Origin: a virus
DNA: 64,000 nt
Direction: 5' to 3' (one strand)
IMG/VR virus record: IMGVR_UViG_3300024313_000004
Span: 70,596 to 134,595 of that record
In this document: in pieces, positions 52,185-59,081 of the stretch
Layout: each line of letters starts with the position of its first letter
How positions within the stretch are numbered: position 1 is the stretch's first letter
The notes under the pieces: generated by a model
The model's input: only the letters and a program-made list of their open reading frames with translations
Told to the model about the DNA's origin: nothing
Databases searched by the model: none
Translations under genes and position numbers: made by a program

Positions 52185-54983
52185 TTAGTATAATGTACAA
52201 GCAAATCTAACTGCTGTTCCGGTTCCGATCGGAGAAGTCGGCATTGTTGAAATATTAGCCGTATTTGTTATTGCAAATGTAGAATCTGATATACCTGTAT
52301 CATAAATTGTTCTCCAAGAAGTACCTGATGGATAAAACCCAACAACTATATCCTCACCAGCAGTAACGTTCAAATTTTGACCTTCCTCTGCAGTTAAATT
52401 AATAACATTTGGTCCAATTCCTGCAAGAGCACTACCCTGTCCTATTAGTGTTAAACTACCAAAAACTCCTCTATAAATACCAAATAGTACGTTATCACTT
52501 CCTGAGAAACCCCACATTTTAACCTTACTTATAGTCATTGTAACTTCTGCAACTGTTTGGTAGTAATATTGAGTTGTTGCTGCAGTTGGGGCCGTATCAC
52601 ATATACCTACATTTATAGGAGAAAATGCAACATTTCTCTGATTAACCCATTGTGTATTATAATCTATAGAATCTATTTTAGATAAAATTTGACCACTTGT
52701 TCCTCCAGATGCCATACTTATTCCCGATGTTCCACTTGTTCCATCAATTCCTGAAGTTCCTGATGTTCCATCAATTCCTGAAGTTCCCGATGTTCCACTT
52801 GTTCCGTCAATTCCTGATGTTCCTGATGTTCCGTCAACTCCTGAAGTTCCCGATGTTCCATCAATTCCTGAAGTTCCCGATGTTCCACTTGTTCCGTCAA
52901 TTCCCGATGTTCCACTTGTTCCGTCAATTCCTGATGTTCCTGATGTTCCATCAATTCCTGAAGTTCCCGATGTTCCACTTGTTCCGTCAATTCCTGATGT
53001 TCCGTCAACTCCTGATGTTCCTGATGTTCCGTCAACTCCTGAAGTTCCCGATGTTCCATCAATTCCTGAAGTTCCTGATGTTCCATCAATTCCTGAAGTT
53101 CCCGATGTTCCACTTGTTCCGTCAACTCCTGAAGTTCCTGATGTTCCATCAATTCCTGAAGTTCCTGATGTTCCATCAATTCCTGAAGTTCCTGATGTTC
53201 CATCAATTCCTGAAGTTCCTGAAGTTCCTGAAGTTCCATCAATTCCTGAAGTTCCTGATGTTCCATCAATTCCTGAAGTTCCTGAAGTTCCATCAATTCC
53301 TGAAGTTCCCGATGTTCCACTTGTTCCGTCAACTCCTGAAGTTCCTGATGTTCCATCAATTCCTGAAGTTCCTGATGTTCCATCAATTCCTGAAGTTCCT
53401 GAAGTTCCATCAATTCCTGAAGTTCCTGATGTTCCATCAATTCCTGAAGTTCCTGAAGTTCCATCAATTCCTGAAGTTCCCGATGTTCCGTCAACTCCTG
53501 AAGTTCCCGATGTTCCACTTGTTCCGTCAACTCCTGAAGTTCCTGATGTTCCATCAATTCCGTCATTTCCATTTACTACCCGGTTGTAGAAAAATACCCC
53601 AGATTGTCGGTTTATAATAATCTCAACATCGGCTATACTTATTCCAGTATTGGTAGTATTTATTATTATTCTATGTGTAGGTACAATTTCCGGAAAGGGA
53701 AGACCATATGAGGAAATTGTTTCCTCGAGAGCATCCTTTATTTGTGAATGTTTCTGTCTACCCATCAATAATTTAATAGGATATATTGAATCATTTGTTG
53801 CCAATAACCAATATGCTATATAAGTGTTATTTGTAGATTCAACTAAACTACCAGTACCGCCTATTCCAATTGGATTGTACATCGCATATGATGATCCTGA
53901 AACCCAAGGATTTGTAGATGGTGTTATCTGAACATAACTATCATTACTATAATATAAAACAGGTATGTAAGCAGTTGGTGATAATATTTGTTGATATGGT
54001 GAAGATGGTGTAGTATTGTTTGTTATTTCATGTACCAAATCTTCATCTGCAATTTCAATATCTTCTATTGAAAGTGTTGTTTCTTCAGTATCATCTAATG
54101 TATAATTAATAGCACCACCACTTCTCCAAACAGCACCAACATCTAAATGTTGTGAAAGGTGCCATTGAGTATCTCTATGGGATGCATGTCTTTCATCTCC
54201 AAATATTACTACTTTAGAGTTTGTGGCATCCCAATAGATATATGATACTAATAAATGTTCTAATATATTAGGTGGATTTCCAATATCTTCTAATAATAAA
54301 GTTATTGGATTAAATATTATATACCTACCACCACTTGTATTATCTATCGACAATGACTTAGATGTATTTATTTCTATTTCTTCACCCCTATACCAAACAG
54401 TATATGATGATGAGACTGGATCTATAGTGATAGTTCTATTTGATGCACTAAATGATAAAACACTATCTACTCTATTAACAAATCCTGTCATATCTAATGT
54501 TATCGAACCCACTTCCTCAATGTTTATTGAAGTTCCACTTGTTCCAGAAGTTCCATCAATTCCGCTTGTCCCATCAATTCCTGAAGTCCCACTTGTCCCA
54601 TCAATTCCTGAAGTTCCACTTGTCCCATCAATTCCAGAAGTTCCCGAAAGACCAATCAACATTTTTTCCCAATATGTCATATCTAAATCAGGTGAAGTCC
54701 AAGGTGCATTACCAACCAAGTCTAATTTACACAAATATTGACTACCATTATAAGTAACGGTATCGTAATAAAAATAACGCATATTTGGATCCCATTCACC
54801 TTGAAAAACCATTGAAACCCCATCTGAACCAGTAGGTCCGATTGGTCCGATAGATGAAGTACCTACACCTAAATCCAAAAGATTACCAAATCCATCATAA
54901 TATGTGTTTGGTGATCCTAAAGAAACTTGAACTATTCGACCATATGTTGATGATACTGTGGCCCCGGTTAAATTAAAATTCAT
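52185..54983 (-). CDS. Collagen-like fibre protein with (GTS/GID)n repeats and C-terminal head domain
   Basis: Start ATG 54983 after TAATATATA; two Gly-X-Y runs; [15 protein letters not shown] linker typical of phage fibres. Confidence 0.8.
52716..53570 (-). repeat. About 95 consecutive Gly-X-Y triplets (GTS, GID, GVD)
   Basis: 855-nt low-complexity coding repeat; a second 14-triplet run lies at 54528-54653. Confidence 0.9.
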
Positions 54984-55146
54984 ATTTATATATATTAAAT
55001 AAACCATCATTAGTTTCAAACGAAATAAATTTCATGTTAACATTTTGTAGGCGAAAATATTTAGAGTAAATCTATACTGAATTAGCAAAAAATAAAGATG
55101 AGTATAGTGGATCCCAACATGTAATATATATAAATAAAAAAATAAA

Positions 55147-55542
55147 ATGCCAATAAAACATTCAACATTATTAAATACCGATTTAGTATGGAGTGAAGAT
55201 GAAATAATCGCGGGCAAAAAGTGGTTAAAATGGGAAGAGGTTACTATAAACTGGGAAAAAATTGATCTCACCTGGGATGAAGTTTTCATATTACTAGAAG
55301 TTGAAAATATAATTCGTGGAGGTAGTGGATATGGCATGAAAGACTATATAGACGGAAATCCCTGGAGAAAAGTAAATGAAAATATTGGTTTAGAAAAAAC
55401 CAATAAATTAATAAAAGTTTATTGTAGAGTAAATGGTGTAGACTATGAAGAATCTAGATACAATATGGATGATATTAAAGTTTCGATAAACGAATTCGAA
55501 AGATTTATCAAAGAAACGGTAAGTGTAAAAGTTAATATTTAA
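55147..55542 (+). CDS. Hypothetical late protein with Trp-spaced repeats
   Basis: KWLKWEEVTINWEKIDLTWDEV; late motif upstream. Confidence 0.55.
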   Translation: MPIKHSTLLNTDLVWSEDEIIAGKKWLKWEEVTINWEKIDLTWDEVFILLEVENIIRGGSGYGMKDYIDGNPWRKVNENIGLEKTNKLIKVYCRVNGVDYEESRYNMDDIKVSINEFERFIKETVSVKVNI

Positions 55543-57445: not shown

Positions 57446-57449
57446 AACT

Positions 57450-59081
57450 TTATTTATTTTTTTCTACTCTATGTACATTATCTATCAATGAGAATCCTTC
57501 CGACTGTTTAGTTAATACTATATTTTTAAATGATGGCATTGGTTCATTTGCTCTTTCAAATGCAAAATTTAACCACCAGTCTGGAGTATGCCATCCAATC
57601 GTATCATATCTTTCTAAGTACCAATCTCTATGTTTAGAGTGTATCATATAACAATGACCAAGTGTCATTATATTACCCAGATATATATTATCTGATACTT
57701 TTTCACCATACTCAACCTGTTTACTTGGTGCCTCAAATCTTACTATCTTATAGTCACTATTCTCTAATAATTCTATTGCCTCATCTACTCTATCTCTAAA
57801 ATATTCTGGATCAACATTTAGAAGACAATCACACTCACATATTAAAGAGTAATCCTCATCAACAAATGATGCCATTATTGCAGACATATGACCCTGCCAA
57901 GCACCATAATGTCCCGATGTCAATCCCCACTCATCTGGATTAGGTTTTGTTACACCAACATACCAATCTTTCCTACCGTCTATTATTTTATTTAATGGTG
58001 GTAATTCATTAAAACGAGGATTTAAAATTCTTAAATACCTATATCCCAATGATGATAAAGAATTATATGAATCAATTTCTCTCTTTTCTCCAGGTTCACT
58101 TGAAATTTGTATAATCTTAATATCCGATCGATTATCTCTACGTCTACCCGATACCTCTATAAGTTTATTTTTATTTTTAATTTGGTCATCCACTATATAA
58201 ATAACTTTACCATCATACATATTTTTATATGTATTTAACTTTTTTATAAAAGTTGGTAATTGATAACCCAGGGCTTCTTTTATTGCCAATGGGCTAAGTT
58301 CGTAATTTGATGCGAAATAGAATATATCGGCAGCCTTATAGAACCTATCGACGTCCTTTCTCTCACCATGTATAATACAATTATTCGGAATATCTTTCAT
58401 CAAAGGTCCCCAATACTCTTCAAAATTAATAGCCTGATTGCCAACAAAATGGAATATAAAATTATCACCTAAGATTCTTGCCAATTCAAATAACTCACCT
58501 TGATTTTTACCTCTAGTGAAAAGACCAACATTAAGTACATGAGTTTTATTTAAATCCCATCCCATTTCAATTTTAGAAATACCTTTATCATATTGTTTTA
58601 TCTCTATTGGATATTCCCAAATTTCACAAGAAACATCATCGCCAAGATGGTTTACAAAAACATCCCTACTCCATTCAGAAACGAGTATATATCTATCTGC
58701 TATATAGTTAAAGGTAGACGGATTTGTGGATGATGAGTGTGTAGTAACCACTATAAAATATTCTCTTTCATCTGAGTATATGATTTCCAACTTAGATTTA
58801 TCTATAAATGTCTCTGGAACTTCATGAAAATGAATAATATTCGGATTTATTTTCTCAATTATATCAAATATATTCGACTTATCATGATTAAGTGTGTAGA
58901 ATCTATCCAATAATAATTCCATTATCTTATTTCTTTGCACCACAAAGACTCCACCAGTTATATTATCCCATTCTACTAAATATATATCATACTTATTTTT
59001 GTAGATTTCTATCTGTTTTAAAACAAATTGTGGCATTCCACCGGTTGATAGATGAGGTACAATAAATAAAATTTTCTCCAT
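57450..59081 (-). CDS. Two-domain glycosyltransferase: GT-B (GT4-like) plus GT-A (GT25-like)
   Basis: PHLSTGGMPQ, GLFTRGKNQ, ADIFYFASNYELSPLAIKEAL; then GHYGAWQGH..LICECDC. Confidence 0.8.
   Translation of the reverse strand: MEKILFIVPHLSTGGMPQFVLKQIEIYKNKYDIYLVEWDNITGGVFVVQRNKIMELLLDRFYTLNHDKSNIFDIIEKINPNIIHFHEVPETFIDKSKLEIIYSDEREYFIVVTTHSSSTNPSTFNYIADRYILVSEWSRDVFVNHLGDDVSCEIWEYPIEIKQYDKGISKIEMGWDLNKTHVLNVGLFTRGKNQGELFELARILGDNFIFHFVGNQAINFEEYWGPLMKDIPNNCIIHGERKDVDRFYKAADIFYFASNYELSPLAIKEALGYQLPTFIKKLNTYKNMYDGKVIYIVDDQIKNKNKLIEVSGRRRDNRSDIKIIQISSEPGEKREIDSYNSLSSLGYRYLRILNPRFNELPPLNKIIDGRKDWYVGVTKPNPDEWGLTSGHYGAWQGHMSAIMASFVDEDYSLICECDCLLNVDPEYFRDRVDEAIELLENSDYKIVRFEAPSKQVEYGEKVSDNIYLGNIMTLGHCYMIHSKHRDWYLERYDTIGWHTPDWWLNFAFERANEPMPSFKNIVLTKQSEGFSLIDNVHRVEKNK

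Follow-up and report, generated by a model that had tools for sequence, protein, structure and literature searches.

A TibC/Aah-family transferase encoded near a proline-free collagen-like fibre in a huge-phage fragment: a probable protein O-glycosylation cassette

A 64,000-nucleotide stretch of viral DNA (IMG/VR virus record IMGVR_UViG_3300024313_000004, positions 70,596 to 134,595; the whole stretch is called the window here and is numbered from its first letter) raises the question whether a phage glycosylates one of its own fibres. Genes for a TibC/Aah-family O-glycosyltransferase (P0002) and for a two-domain transferase (P0003) lie near the gene of a fibre (P0001) whose collagen-like tracts consist largely of Gly-Thr-Ser (GTS) triplets, and an earlier, sequence-only reading of the window had proposed that the phage modifies this fibre. 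Judged from family matches, gene neighbourhoods and phylogeny, the region is likely to be a phage protein O-glycosylation cassette together with its probable substrate fibre. The source record is 134,595 bp long and was estimated by CheckV to be 23% complete, and the window forms its final 64 kb (base composition approximately 29% G+C). Genes for a portal, a prohead protease, a major head protein, a large terminase and an unusually long tail sheath were recognised in the window, and its head module showed approximately 80% nucleotide identity to the uncultured phages LR745206 and LR756502 (634 kb and 642 kb). The low completeness and the kinship with these genomes indicate that the window is a fragment of a very large phage; for the same incompleteness, absences within the record mean little. 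The features of the proposed system are as follows, where GID, GVD and GLS denote Gly-Ile-Asp, Gly-Val-Asp and Gly-Leu-Ser.

52185-55019, minus strand: fibre P0001, 944 amino acids counted from a TTG start, the proposed acceptor (Pfam Collagen and PHROG tail-fibre matches)
52716-53570, minus strand: long collagen-like tract of P0001, residues 484-768, 95 unbroken Gly-X-Y triplets (64 GTS, 22 GID, 7 GVD)
54528-54653, minus strand: short collagen-like tract of P0001, residues 123-164, 14 triplets (9 GTS, 4 GID, 1 GLS)
56282-57445, minus strand: P0002, TibC/Aah-family O-glycosyltransferase, 387 amino acids, the proposed initiating enzyme (TIGR04414, PDB 4rap)
57450-59102, minus strand: P0003, two-domain transferase, 550 amino acids (GT4 domain and GT25-like domain)
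58131-59102, minus strand: GT4 (GT-B) domain of P0003, residues 1-324, a proposed glycan-extending enzyme (Pfam)
57450-58130, minus strand: GT25-like GT-A domain of P0003, residues 325-550, a proposed second extender (structural model and Foldseek, with an Atlas lead)

By its sequence, P0002 is a member of the TibC/Aah family. It matched the NCBIfam model TIGR04414 (hepto_Aah_TibC) over model positions 28-371 of 374 (E 1.2e-87, 294.3 bits, cut-off 200), its residues 63-380 matched the sequence of the TibC structure PDB 4rap (E 4.1e-62), and identity to the TibC/Aah enzymes of E. coli was approximately 40%; a Pfam GT9 match was also obtained. According to the TibC structural study, Asp110 is the catalytic base, Thr226 and Lys230 contact the beta-phosphate and Trp305 contacts O4 of the heptose (PMC4358343). 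The equivalents of these residues (Asp110 corresponding to Asp111 in P0002), of the four iron-finger cysteines and of Phe368 are all kept in P0002. Across the 44 viral clusters described below the same residues are invariant, save for Phe368 (present in 42 of the 44), and the invariance of the catalytic set argues that sugar-nucleotide chemistry has been retained. The sequence-only identification of a TibC/Aah-like enzyme at 56282 held, and the cysteines noted in it correspond by alignment to Cys339, 342, 358 and 370 of the TibC iron finger, with iron binding being putative. At the thumb tip, Phe265 and Val266 of TibC are replaced by Tyr and Met in P0002, and Pro300 is replaced by Ser, as it is in Aah.

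The fibre P0001 matched both Pfam Collagen (PF01391; E 2e-45, 152.8 bits) and PHROG tail-fibre families (best phrog_5073, E 1.3e-52), with a weak CBM_5_12 match at residues 75-110; ATG codons at residues 4, 5 and 13 offer alternative starts. Besides the two collagen-like tracts it has a tail-fibre-like N-terminal domain, a middle one and a C-terminal one, and the long tract is a tandem repeat with a period of 27 nucleotides and 28.6 copies. Altogether the protein has 109 Gly-X-Y triplets (73 GTS, 26 GID and 7 GVD), in agreement with the mostly Gly-Thr-Ser repeat described earlier, and Ser or Thr occupies 68% of the X and Y positions of the tracts. Lys is absent from the tracts, as is proline from either of them, so that the usual collagen trait of X and Y positions rich in proline or hydroxyproline is lacking. 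Three proteins of the record share the GTS/GID repeat, namely P0001 and two others encoded outside the window, and a single cassette could therefore act in trans on several acceptors. The second of these proteins (record G000 59075-62059, plus strand; L192:1279-4257) has 995 amino acids and a C-terminal part of short repeats rich in Gly and Asn, for which Pfam gave no match; YadA-head (Hep_Hag) repeats were considered for it and found no Pfam support. The third (record G000 3-662, minus strand; L193) is truncated at the contig end; the C-terminal domain of P0001 occurs in it as well.

Co-occurrence of the transferase with such repeats across genomes had been named beforehand as a check, and it gave the proposal strong support. 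A scan of IMG/VR yielded 104 viral stretches encoding TibC relatives, of which 80 were kept and, together with the window, grouped into 44 clusters at 80% identity; the 'viral' and 'MAG' (metagenome-assembled genome) labels of the metagenomic contigs compared can be wrong. Collagen-like open reading frames (ORFs) were counted when Ser or Thr made up at least 50% of X and Y positions and when they lay at most 10 kb from the TibC gene. On this definition, 32 of the 44 viral clusters had a Gly-Ser/Thr collagen-like ORF within 10 kb, and in 12 of the 44 the ORF started at most 100 bp downstream on the same strand. Placement was directional, since such ORFs covered 35-45% of bases at 0-5 kb downstream of the TibC gene versus 0-5% at 0-6 kb upstream. 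When 20-kb regions at least 23 kb away from the TibC gene were taken as matched controls from the same 20 viral records, a collagen-like ORF was found in 17 of 20 TibC-centred regions versus 2 of 20 control regions, with occupancies of 22.3% and 2.6%, respectively. Homologues of the transferase proved not to be frequent in phages without Ser/Thr-rich repeats, a result that had been named as one that would speak against the proposal: strict (Gly-[Ser/Thr]-[Ser/Thr])x5 coding tracts were present in 21 of 25 whole records, always on one strand, while the reversed pattern gave 0 tracts. Leaving aside TibC, transferase and collagen-like genes, every gene family was confined to at most 8 of the 44 neighbourhoods, and the linkage is for that reason not a by-product of conserved synteny.

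The same pairing extends to bacteria. A scan of bacterial genomes with a single-protein query returned no relatives. They did emerge from an alignment-based scan in which each prokaryotic species was represented by one genome: there were more than 572, from which 79 loci were kept. In a FastTree phylogeny of 121 sequences, a branch with support of 100 and a length of 0.8 separated all viral and some bacterial sequences from the classical enzymes, and the same split was recovered by IQ-TREE with a Shimodaira-Hasegawa-like approximate likelihood ratio (SH-aLRT) support of 100 (78 versus 19 rows). Bacteria on the viral side of the split include methanotrophs, Arenicellales and Burkholderiales, while the classical side holds E. 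coli Aah, Kosakonia, Burkholderia, Lentisphaeria and Selenomonadales; P0002, with a Ser/Thr collagen-like gene 1263 bp away, falls inside the collagen-linked branch. A Ser/Thr collagen-like neighbour was found for 56 of 79 rows inside the clade (57 when the phage Mel-JY01, described below, is counted) versus 1 of 42 outside, several rows lacking such a neighbour being contigs of just 2-5 kb. The gene arrangement differs accordingly: E. coli aah adjoins AIDA-I, whereas the window has no autotransporter and carries a collagen-like fibre instead. In Methylobacter luteus IMV-B-3098, a chromosomal TibC homologue sits among the housekeeping genes mfd, glycolate oxidase and miaB. The gene 41 bp upstream of it (L107 6917-7780, plus strand) encodes a secreted protein of 287 amino acids that has a signal peptide; after each of its two Gly-Thr-Ser/Ala runs comes a domain of approximately 75 residues, similar each time. 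This pairing is unrelated to phage genome layout. Similar small pairs were seen in other methanotrophs, Arenicellales and Burkholderiales.

P0003, described in the sequence-only reading as a two-domain glycosyltransferase at 57450, retained that description upon closer analysis. Its residues 181-289 matched Pfam Glycos_transf_1 (PF00534; 36.0 bits, cut-off 26.4), and the N-terminal domain also matched PF13692 (Glyco_trans_1_4; 30.4 bits, cut-off 27). For the C-terminal 226 residues there was no Pfam match, PF01755 giving none even at E values up to 1, and no useful NCBIfam match was obtained. An exhaustive search returned 190 relatives of this domain, and 4 of 40 stand-alone relatives matched Pfam GT25 (PF01755, best E 1.5e-5). 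An AlphaFold2 model of residues 325-550, built from a 40-sequence alignment, has a GT-A fold with a predicted local distance difference test score (pLDDT) of 95. The best solved structures returned for it by Foldseek were COLGALT1 (9evj_A; E 4.7e-8, template modelling score 0.70) and Mimivirus R655, and an invariant Glu99-x-Asp101 (CECDC), an acidic metal-binding motif, is present in the domain. On the evidence of the model, the C-terminus is GT25-like rather than a GT25 member.

Most viral relatives carry the TibC domain as the C-terminal portion of a larger protein, with N-terminal partners that include GT4, S-adenosylmethionine-dependent (SAM) or FkbM methyltransferases, an extra GT9 and GT32. 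Residues 8-320 of P0003 are homologous to the N-terminal extensions of seven viral TibC fusions (E 1e-57 to 1e-113), and by this homology the window holds a split version of a common TibC fusion. Fusions to transferases and methyltransferases fit with a stepwise building of glycans by initiation, extension and methylation. Homologues of P0003 with 81-85% identity were found in other samples. The nearest relative of P0002 (56% identity) is encoded on a contig labelled giant-virus MAG (L001, IMGVR_UViG_GVMAG-S-404869-56_000001), which may be a misbinned huge phage; the protein has approximately 1100 amino acids, with the TibC domain first and FkbM methyltransferase and GT32 domains in addition, and a nearby ORF carries the same GTS/GID repeat as the window fibre. 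The cultured Microcystis phage Mel-JY01 (PP395634.1, L104) has a frame of 1016 codons at 2-3049 (plus strand), 606 residues of which are Gly-Ser/Thr triplets; in GenBank this frame is replaced by two 'hypothetical proteins' on the opposite strand (1-651 and 739-2298) and by a short piece at the 3' end. Its TibC domain sits in a protein of 1226 amino acids named 'methyltransferase FkbM' (4750-8430), a fusion of methyltransferase, GT9 and TibC domains.

How far the transferases and the fibre are linked in transcription depends on the region between them, which contains the following features.

56264-56301, no strand assigned: hairpin with a 17-bp perfect stem and A/T runs on both sides (terminator scan)
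55147-55542, plus strand: P0014, conserved hypothetical protein, 131 amino acids, divergent from the fibre gene (53% identical homologue in LR756502)
55559-56266, plus strand: P0012, conserved hypothetical protein, 235 amino acids with an acidic N-terminal half, convergent with P0002 (64% identical homologue in LR756502)

The hairpin overlaps the convergent stop codons at 56266 (P0012) and 56282 (P0002) and looks like a bidirectional intrinsic terminator. The genes for P0003 and P0002 lie 4 bp apart and probably form a two-gene operon; their spacing, their common strand and the hairpin after both make plausible the co-transcription that had been claimed for them. The fibre, earlier placed about 1.3 kb away, is separated from P0002 by 1263 bp that contain the terminator, P0014 and P0012, and on account of this terminator and of the two opposite-strand genes it constitutes a transcription unit separate from the transferases. 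No Pfam or NCBIfam match was found for P0014 and no family match for P0012 in Pfam, NCBIfam or PHROG scans; both are taken to be real genes because their LR756502 homologues hold the same places beside an orthologous fibre. An antisense ORF at 55032-55337 (minus strand) looks spurious, and the ORFs at 55032, 59198, 62052 and 62629 gave nothing useful in Pfam and NCBIfam scans.

Two relatives of this phage allow a further comparison. In the 735-kb phage LR756501, a P0003 homologue that has both domains precedes a TibC fusion gene, and a Ser/Thr collagen-like gene starts 24 bp from this cassette on the opposite strand. LR756502 keeps an orthologous fibre (N-terminus 51% identical) together with the P0014 and P0012 homologues in the same order; no TibC homologue was found in this genome and no transferase cassette follows the fibre, the triplets of which are GAT, GSQ and GIQ. 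This contrast runs as the fibre-glycosylation hypothesis predicts, and it is a single natural contrast.

The donor has to be considered separately from the acceptor. In TibC, Arg286 hydrogen-bonds N1 of adenine, and the substitution R286A abolished or largely diminished activity (PMC4358343). The classical enzymes have Arg at this position; P0002 has Leu, and 41 of the 44 viral clusters have Leu, Val, Ile, Thr or Ala. Because this adenine-contacting residue is replaced, the donor nucleotide of P0002 is uncertain and may be other than adenosine diphosphate (ADP). The earlier suggestion that the donor might not be ADP-heptose thus gained some support from the residue. Loss of Arg286 was also considered as a mark of collagen-linked enzymes and was rejected, as Arenicellales and other bacterial members keep Arg beside collagen-like genes. 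A phage-borne ADP-heptose pathway is likewise unsupported: gmhA was encoded in 0 of 26 viral records searched, and small RfaE-domain-II-like nucleotidyltransferases were found in 5 of the 26 only, with heptose-1-phosphate adenylyltransferase as best match (59-109 bits, short of the 181.5-bit cut-off). Of these five genes, two adjoin the TibC gene directly (L185, G011 43404-43787; L186, G003 5905-6282), and they encode proteins of 126-128 amino acids that matched heptose-1-phosphate adenylyltransferase at 99-108 bits and, second, glycerol-3-phosphate cytidylyltransferase at 60-74 bits. No RfaE-II-like gene was found in the window's own, 23% complete record.

A mechanism can be proposed on this basis. 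P0002 would act in the cytoplasm of the infected cell, with Asp111 as general base, and would transfer a nucleotide-activated sugar, by homology a heptose-like one, to Ser and Thr of the GTS triplets in P0001; the two further GTS/GID proteins of the same phage would probably be modified likewise. The two domains of P0003 would then extend the first sugar to a short glycan. Where collagen helices lack hydroxyproline, glycosylation of Thr in the Y position has a stabilising effect. A dense glycan coat on P0001 would hydrate, stabilise and shield a triple helix built without proline or hydroxyproline. Beyond the window, we put forward tentatively, and with somewhat less than even confidence, that a widespread and unrecognised system exists, in which a lineage that is sister to the autotransporter heptosyltransferases has turned from beta-helices to proline-free Gly-Ser/Thr collagen-like repeats, with changed recognition of the donor nucleotide, the glycan replacing hydroxyproline in keeping the triple helix together. 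Its substrates would be fibres of many aquatic phages and some bacterial secreted repeat proteins (of methanotrophs, Arenicellales and Burkholderiales).

Several observations weigh against fibre glycosylation by the cassette. The fibre is separately transcribed, 1.26 kb off across a terminator and two opposite-strand genes, and with 3 collagen-like genes in 134.6 kb such proximity would arise by chance in approximately 6% of cases, so that the window alone is proof of little as regards coupling between transferases and fibre. No Ser/Thr collagen-like gene lies within 10 kb in 12 of the 44 viral clusters, and the split between the clades is essentially one evolutionary event, so that 57 of 79 versus 1 of 42 does not represent many independent samples. 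P0002 is without Arg286, which TibC needs for full activity, and GmhA is missing from all 26 viral records. TibC grips a folded beta-helix by its iron finger, and a collagen chain or triple helix would present this scaffold with an acceptor of another shape. The original proposal is partly supported: the frequency of co-occurrence, the same-genome control and the distinct clade speak for a phage that glycosylates its own fibre, while the separate transcription units speak against it.

The alternative that survives best is that the cassette has targets other than the fibre (another virion protein, the host envelope glycan or lipopolysaccharide (LPS), with serotype conversion or superinfection exclusion as the outcome, a host protein, or DNA), with adjacency resulting from a shared variable region of accessory and structural genes. 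We regard this as unlikely. The separate transcription units of fibre and transferases in the window and the 12 viral clusters without a nearby collagen-like gene are what it would lead one to expect, and the TibC fold is that of the LPS heptosyltransferases, TibC having been compared with WaaC (PMC4358343) and P0002 having its GT9 match; transferases by which phages change the serotype of the host or their own DNA are moreover well known (PMC12619734). Such a shared region sits poorly with the same-genome control (2 of 20 versus 17 of 20) and with the directional placement immediately downstream of the TibC gene. The same pairing occurs in bacterial chromosomes without phage context, no other neighbour recurs, and the subfamily stands apart from the autotransporter-linked enzymes. 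DNA glucosylation in particular is disfavoured, as TibC/Aah enzymes are known solely as protein O-glycosyltransferases (PMC4358343).

A second alternative, which we consider improbable, accepts the tracts as the site of action and changes what P0002 does there: its main role would be that of a ring-shaped factor for folding or assembly, or it would transfer glycerol-phosphate or another group that is not a sugar. In favour of this alternative stand the dodecameric ring of TibC, through which the substrate is threaded (PMC4358343), and the loss of Arg286; against it, the catalytic Asp, Thr226, Lys230 and Trp305 are invariant in the 44 viral clusters. The glycerol-3-phosphate cytidylyltransferase matches of the TibC-adjacent nucleotidyltransferases in two viral records (60-74 bits) could point to a non-sugar group; the same small enzymes match heptose-1-phosphate adenylyltransferase better, however, and the partners fused to TibC domains are glycosyltransferases and methyltransferases. 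That the cassette is a decaying or inactive acquisition without current function in this phage is highly improbable, for although the close relatives LR756502 and LR745206 manage without it, both reading frames are intact, the catalytic and structural residues are kept save Arg286, and P0003 homologues occur at 81-85% identity in other samples.

Taking glycosylation of the fibre as the preferred reading, its closest known counterparts are TibC-TibA and Aah-AIDA-I (TIGR04414; 4RAP/4RB4; PMC4358343). P0002 belongs to the same family and has the same catalytic residues, iron finger and Phe368, and in those systems too the enzyme gene lies near a long, repetitive, Ser/Thr-rich surface-fibre gene; by analogy, multi-site cytoplasmic O-glycosylation of Ser and Thr would be expected for P0002 as well. 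In contrast to those enzymes, P0002 sits on a separate, fully supported branch, its neighbour is collagen-like rather than an autotransporter beta-helix, and it is phage-encoded and paired (fused in other viruses) with transferases or methyltransferases, for which reason a longer glycan is expected than single heptoses. A likeness of another kind is offered by Clostridioides difficile: the gene immediately upstream of bclA3 is sgtA, whose product adds O-linked N-acetylglucosamine (GlcNAc) to Thr, and can use Ser, in collagen-like triplets (PMC7157674). As in the SgtA-BclA3 system and BclA of B. anthracis (PMC7157674, PMC6222408), a transferase gene stands beside a collagen-like gene, and the product there is a glycan-coated surface filament, as proposed for the window fibre. 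SgtA is, however, a GT-A enzyme using uridine diphosphate (UDP)-GlcNAc, whereas P0002 is a GT-B enzyme of TibC type, and the triplets of the BclA proteins, which are exosporium proteins of spores, are Gly-Pro-Thr, whereas the window tracts are proline-free and part of a phage fibre.

Phage transferases that decorate the phage's own structural proteins are described for mycobacteriophages (Freeman et al. 2023, Cell Host Microbe 31:1216, as cited in PMC12619734 and PMC12801897). The acceptors there are the C-termini of capsid and tail-tube subunits and the enzymes belong to families other than TibC; that case has been shown experimentally, whereas the P0002 system is a proposal. In these two papers on large aquatic phages (PMC12619734, PMC12801897), the mycobacteriophage case is the sole one cited for virion glycosylation, and a search of an incomplete literature library returned no relevant paper on TibC or heptosyltransferases with collagen-like proteins or phages. 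COLGALT1/GLT25D1, LH3 and Mimivirus R655/R699 are GT-A enzymes like the P0003 C-terminus, and COLGALT1 acts on collagen. Identity of the P0003 C-terminus to COLGALT1 and R655 is just 14-16%, with no direct Pfam GT25 match, and COLGALT1 modifies hydroxylysine, which is impossible in the P0001 tracts because they contain no Lys. As far as the model goes, the likeness between P0003 and COLGALT1 is one of fold and carries no information on the acceptor.

What is new here is a TibC-type lineage coupled to collagen-like repeats instead of autotransporters, in this instance in a huge phage. To our knowledge, TibC-type enzymes have been known solely as partners of autotransporter adhesins in pathogens, and experimentally shown glycosylation of phage virions has been limited to mycobacteriophage capsid and tail-tube ends. 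If true, the proposal would add a second and far more widespread route of phage self-glycosylation, acting on the long collagen-like fibres of large aquatic phages. It would also bear on how proline-free triple helices stay folded, on the protease resistance of fibres and their sticking to or slipping through polysaccharide layers, and on how the TibC scaffold shifts acceptor and donor specificity. The comparison further exposes a source of annotation error, with the TibC domain hidden under the name 'methyltransferase FkbM' and the collagen-like gene displaced by antisense ORFs. The idea is directly testable, as the pair is carried by a cultured Microcystis phage.

The remaining observations concern other parts of the window. 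A third glycosyltransferase had been reported at 63359, and a gene of this kind is present:

63359-64000, minus strand: GT2/Glyco_transf_7C-like glycosyltransferase fragment, cut by the contig end (PF02709, E 1.6e-8; PF00535, E 1.2e-6; phrog_1721, galactosyl transferase)

The fragment sits 4 kb from the cassette, beyond opposite-strand genes, and any functional link to the system is conjectural. Its 3' end is overlapped by 14 bp by an ORF for 247 amino acids (62629-63372, minus strand), which is probably co-transcribed with it; this ORF had no family match, and weak capsid-like leads from Atlas were discarded. The tail-sheath homologue at 9922-13845 (minus strand) has 1307 amino acids, of which the last 370 or so carry the sheath-family match, the remaining N-terminal part being a very large addition.

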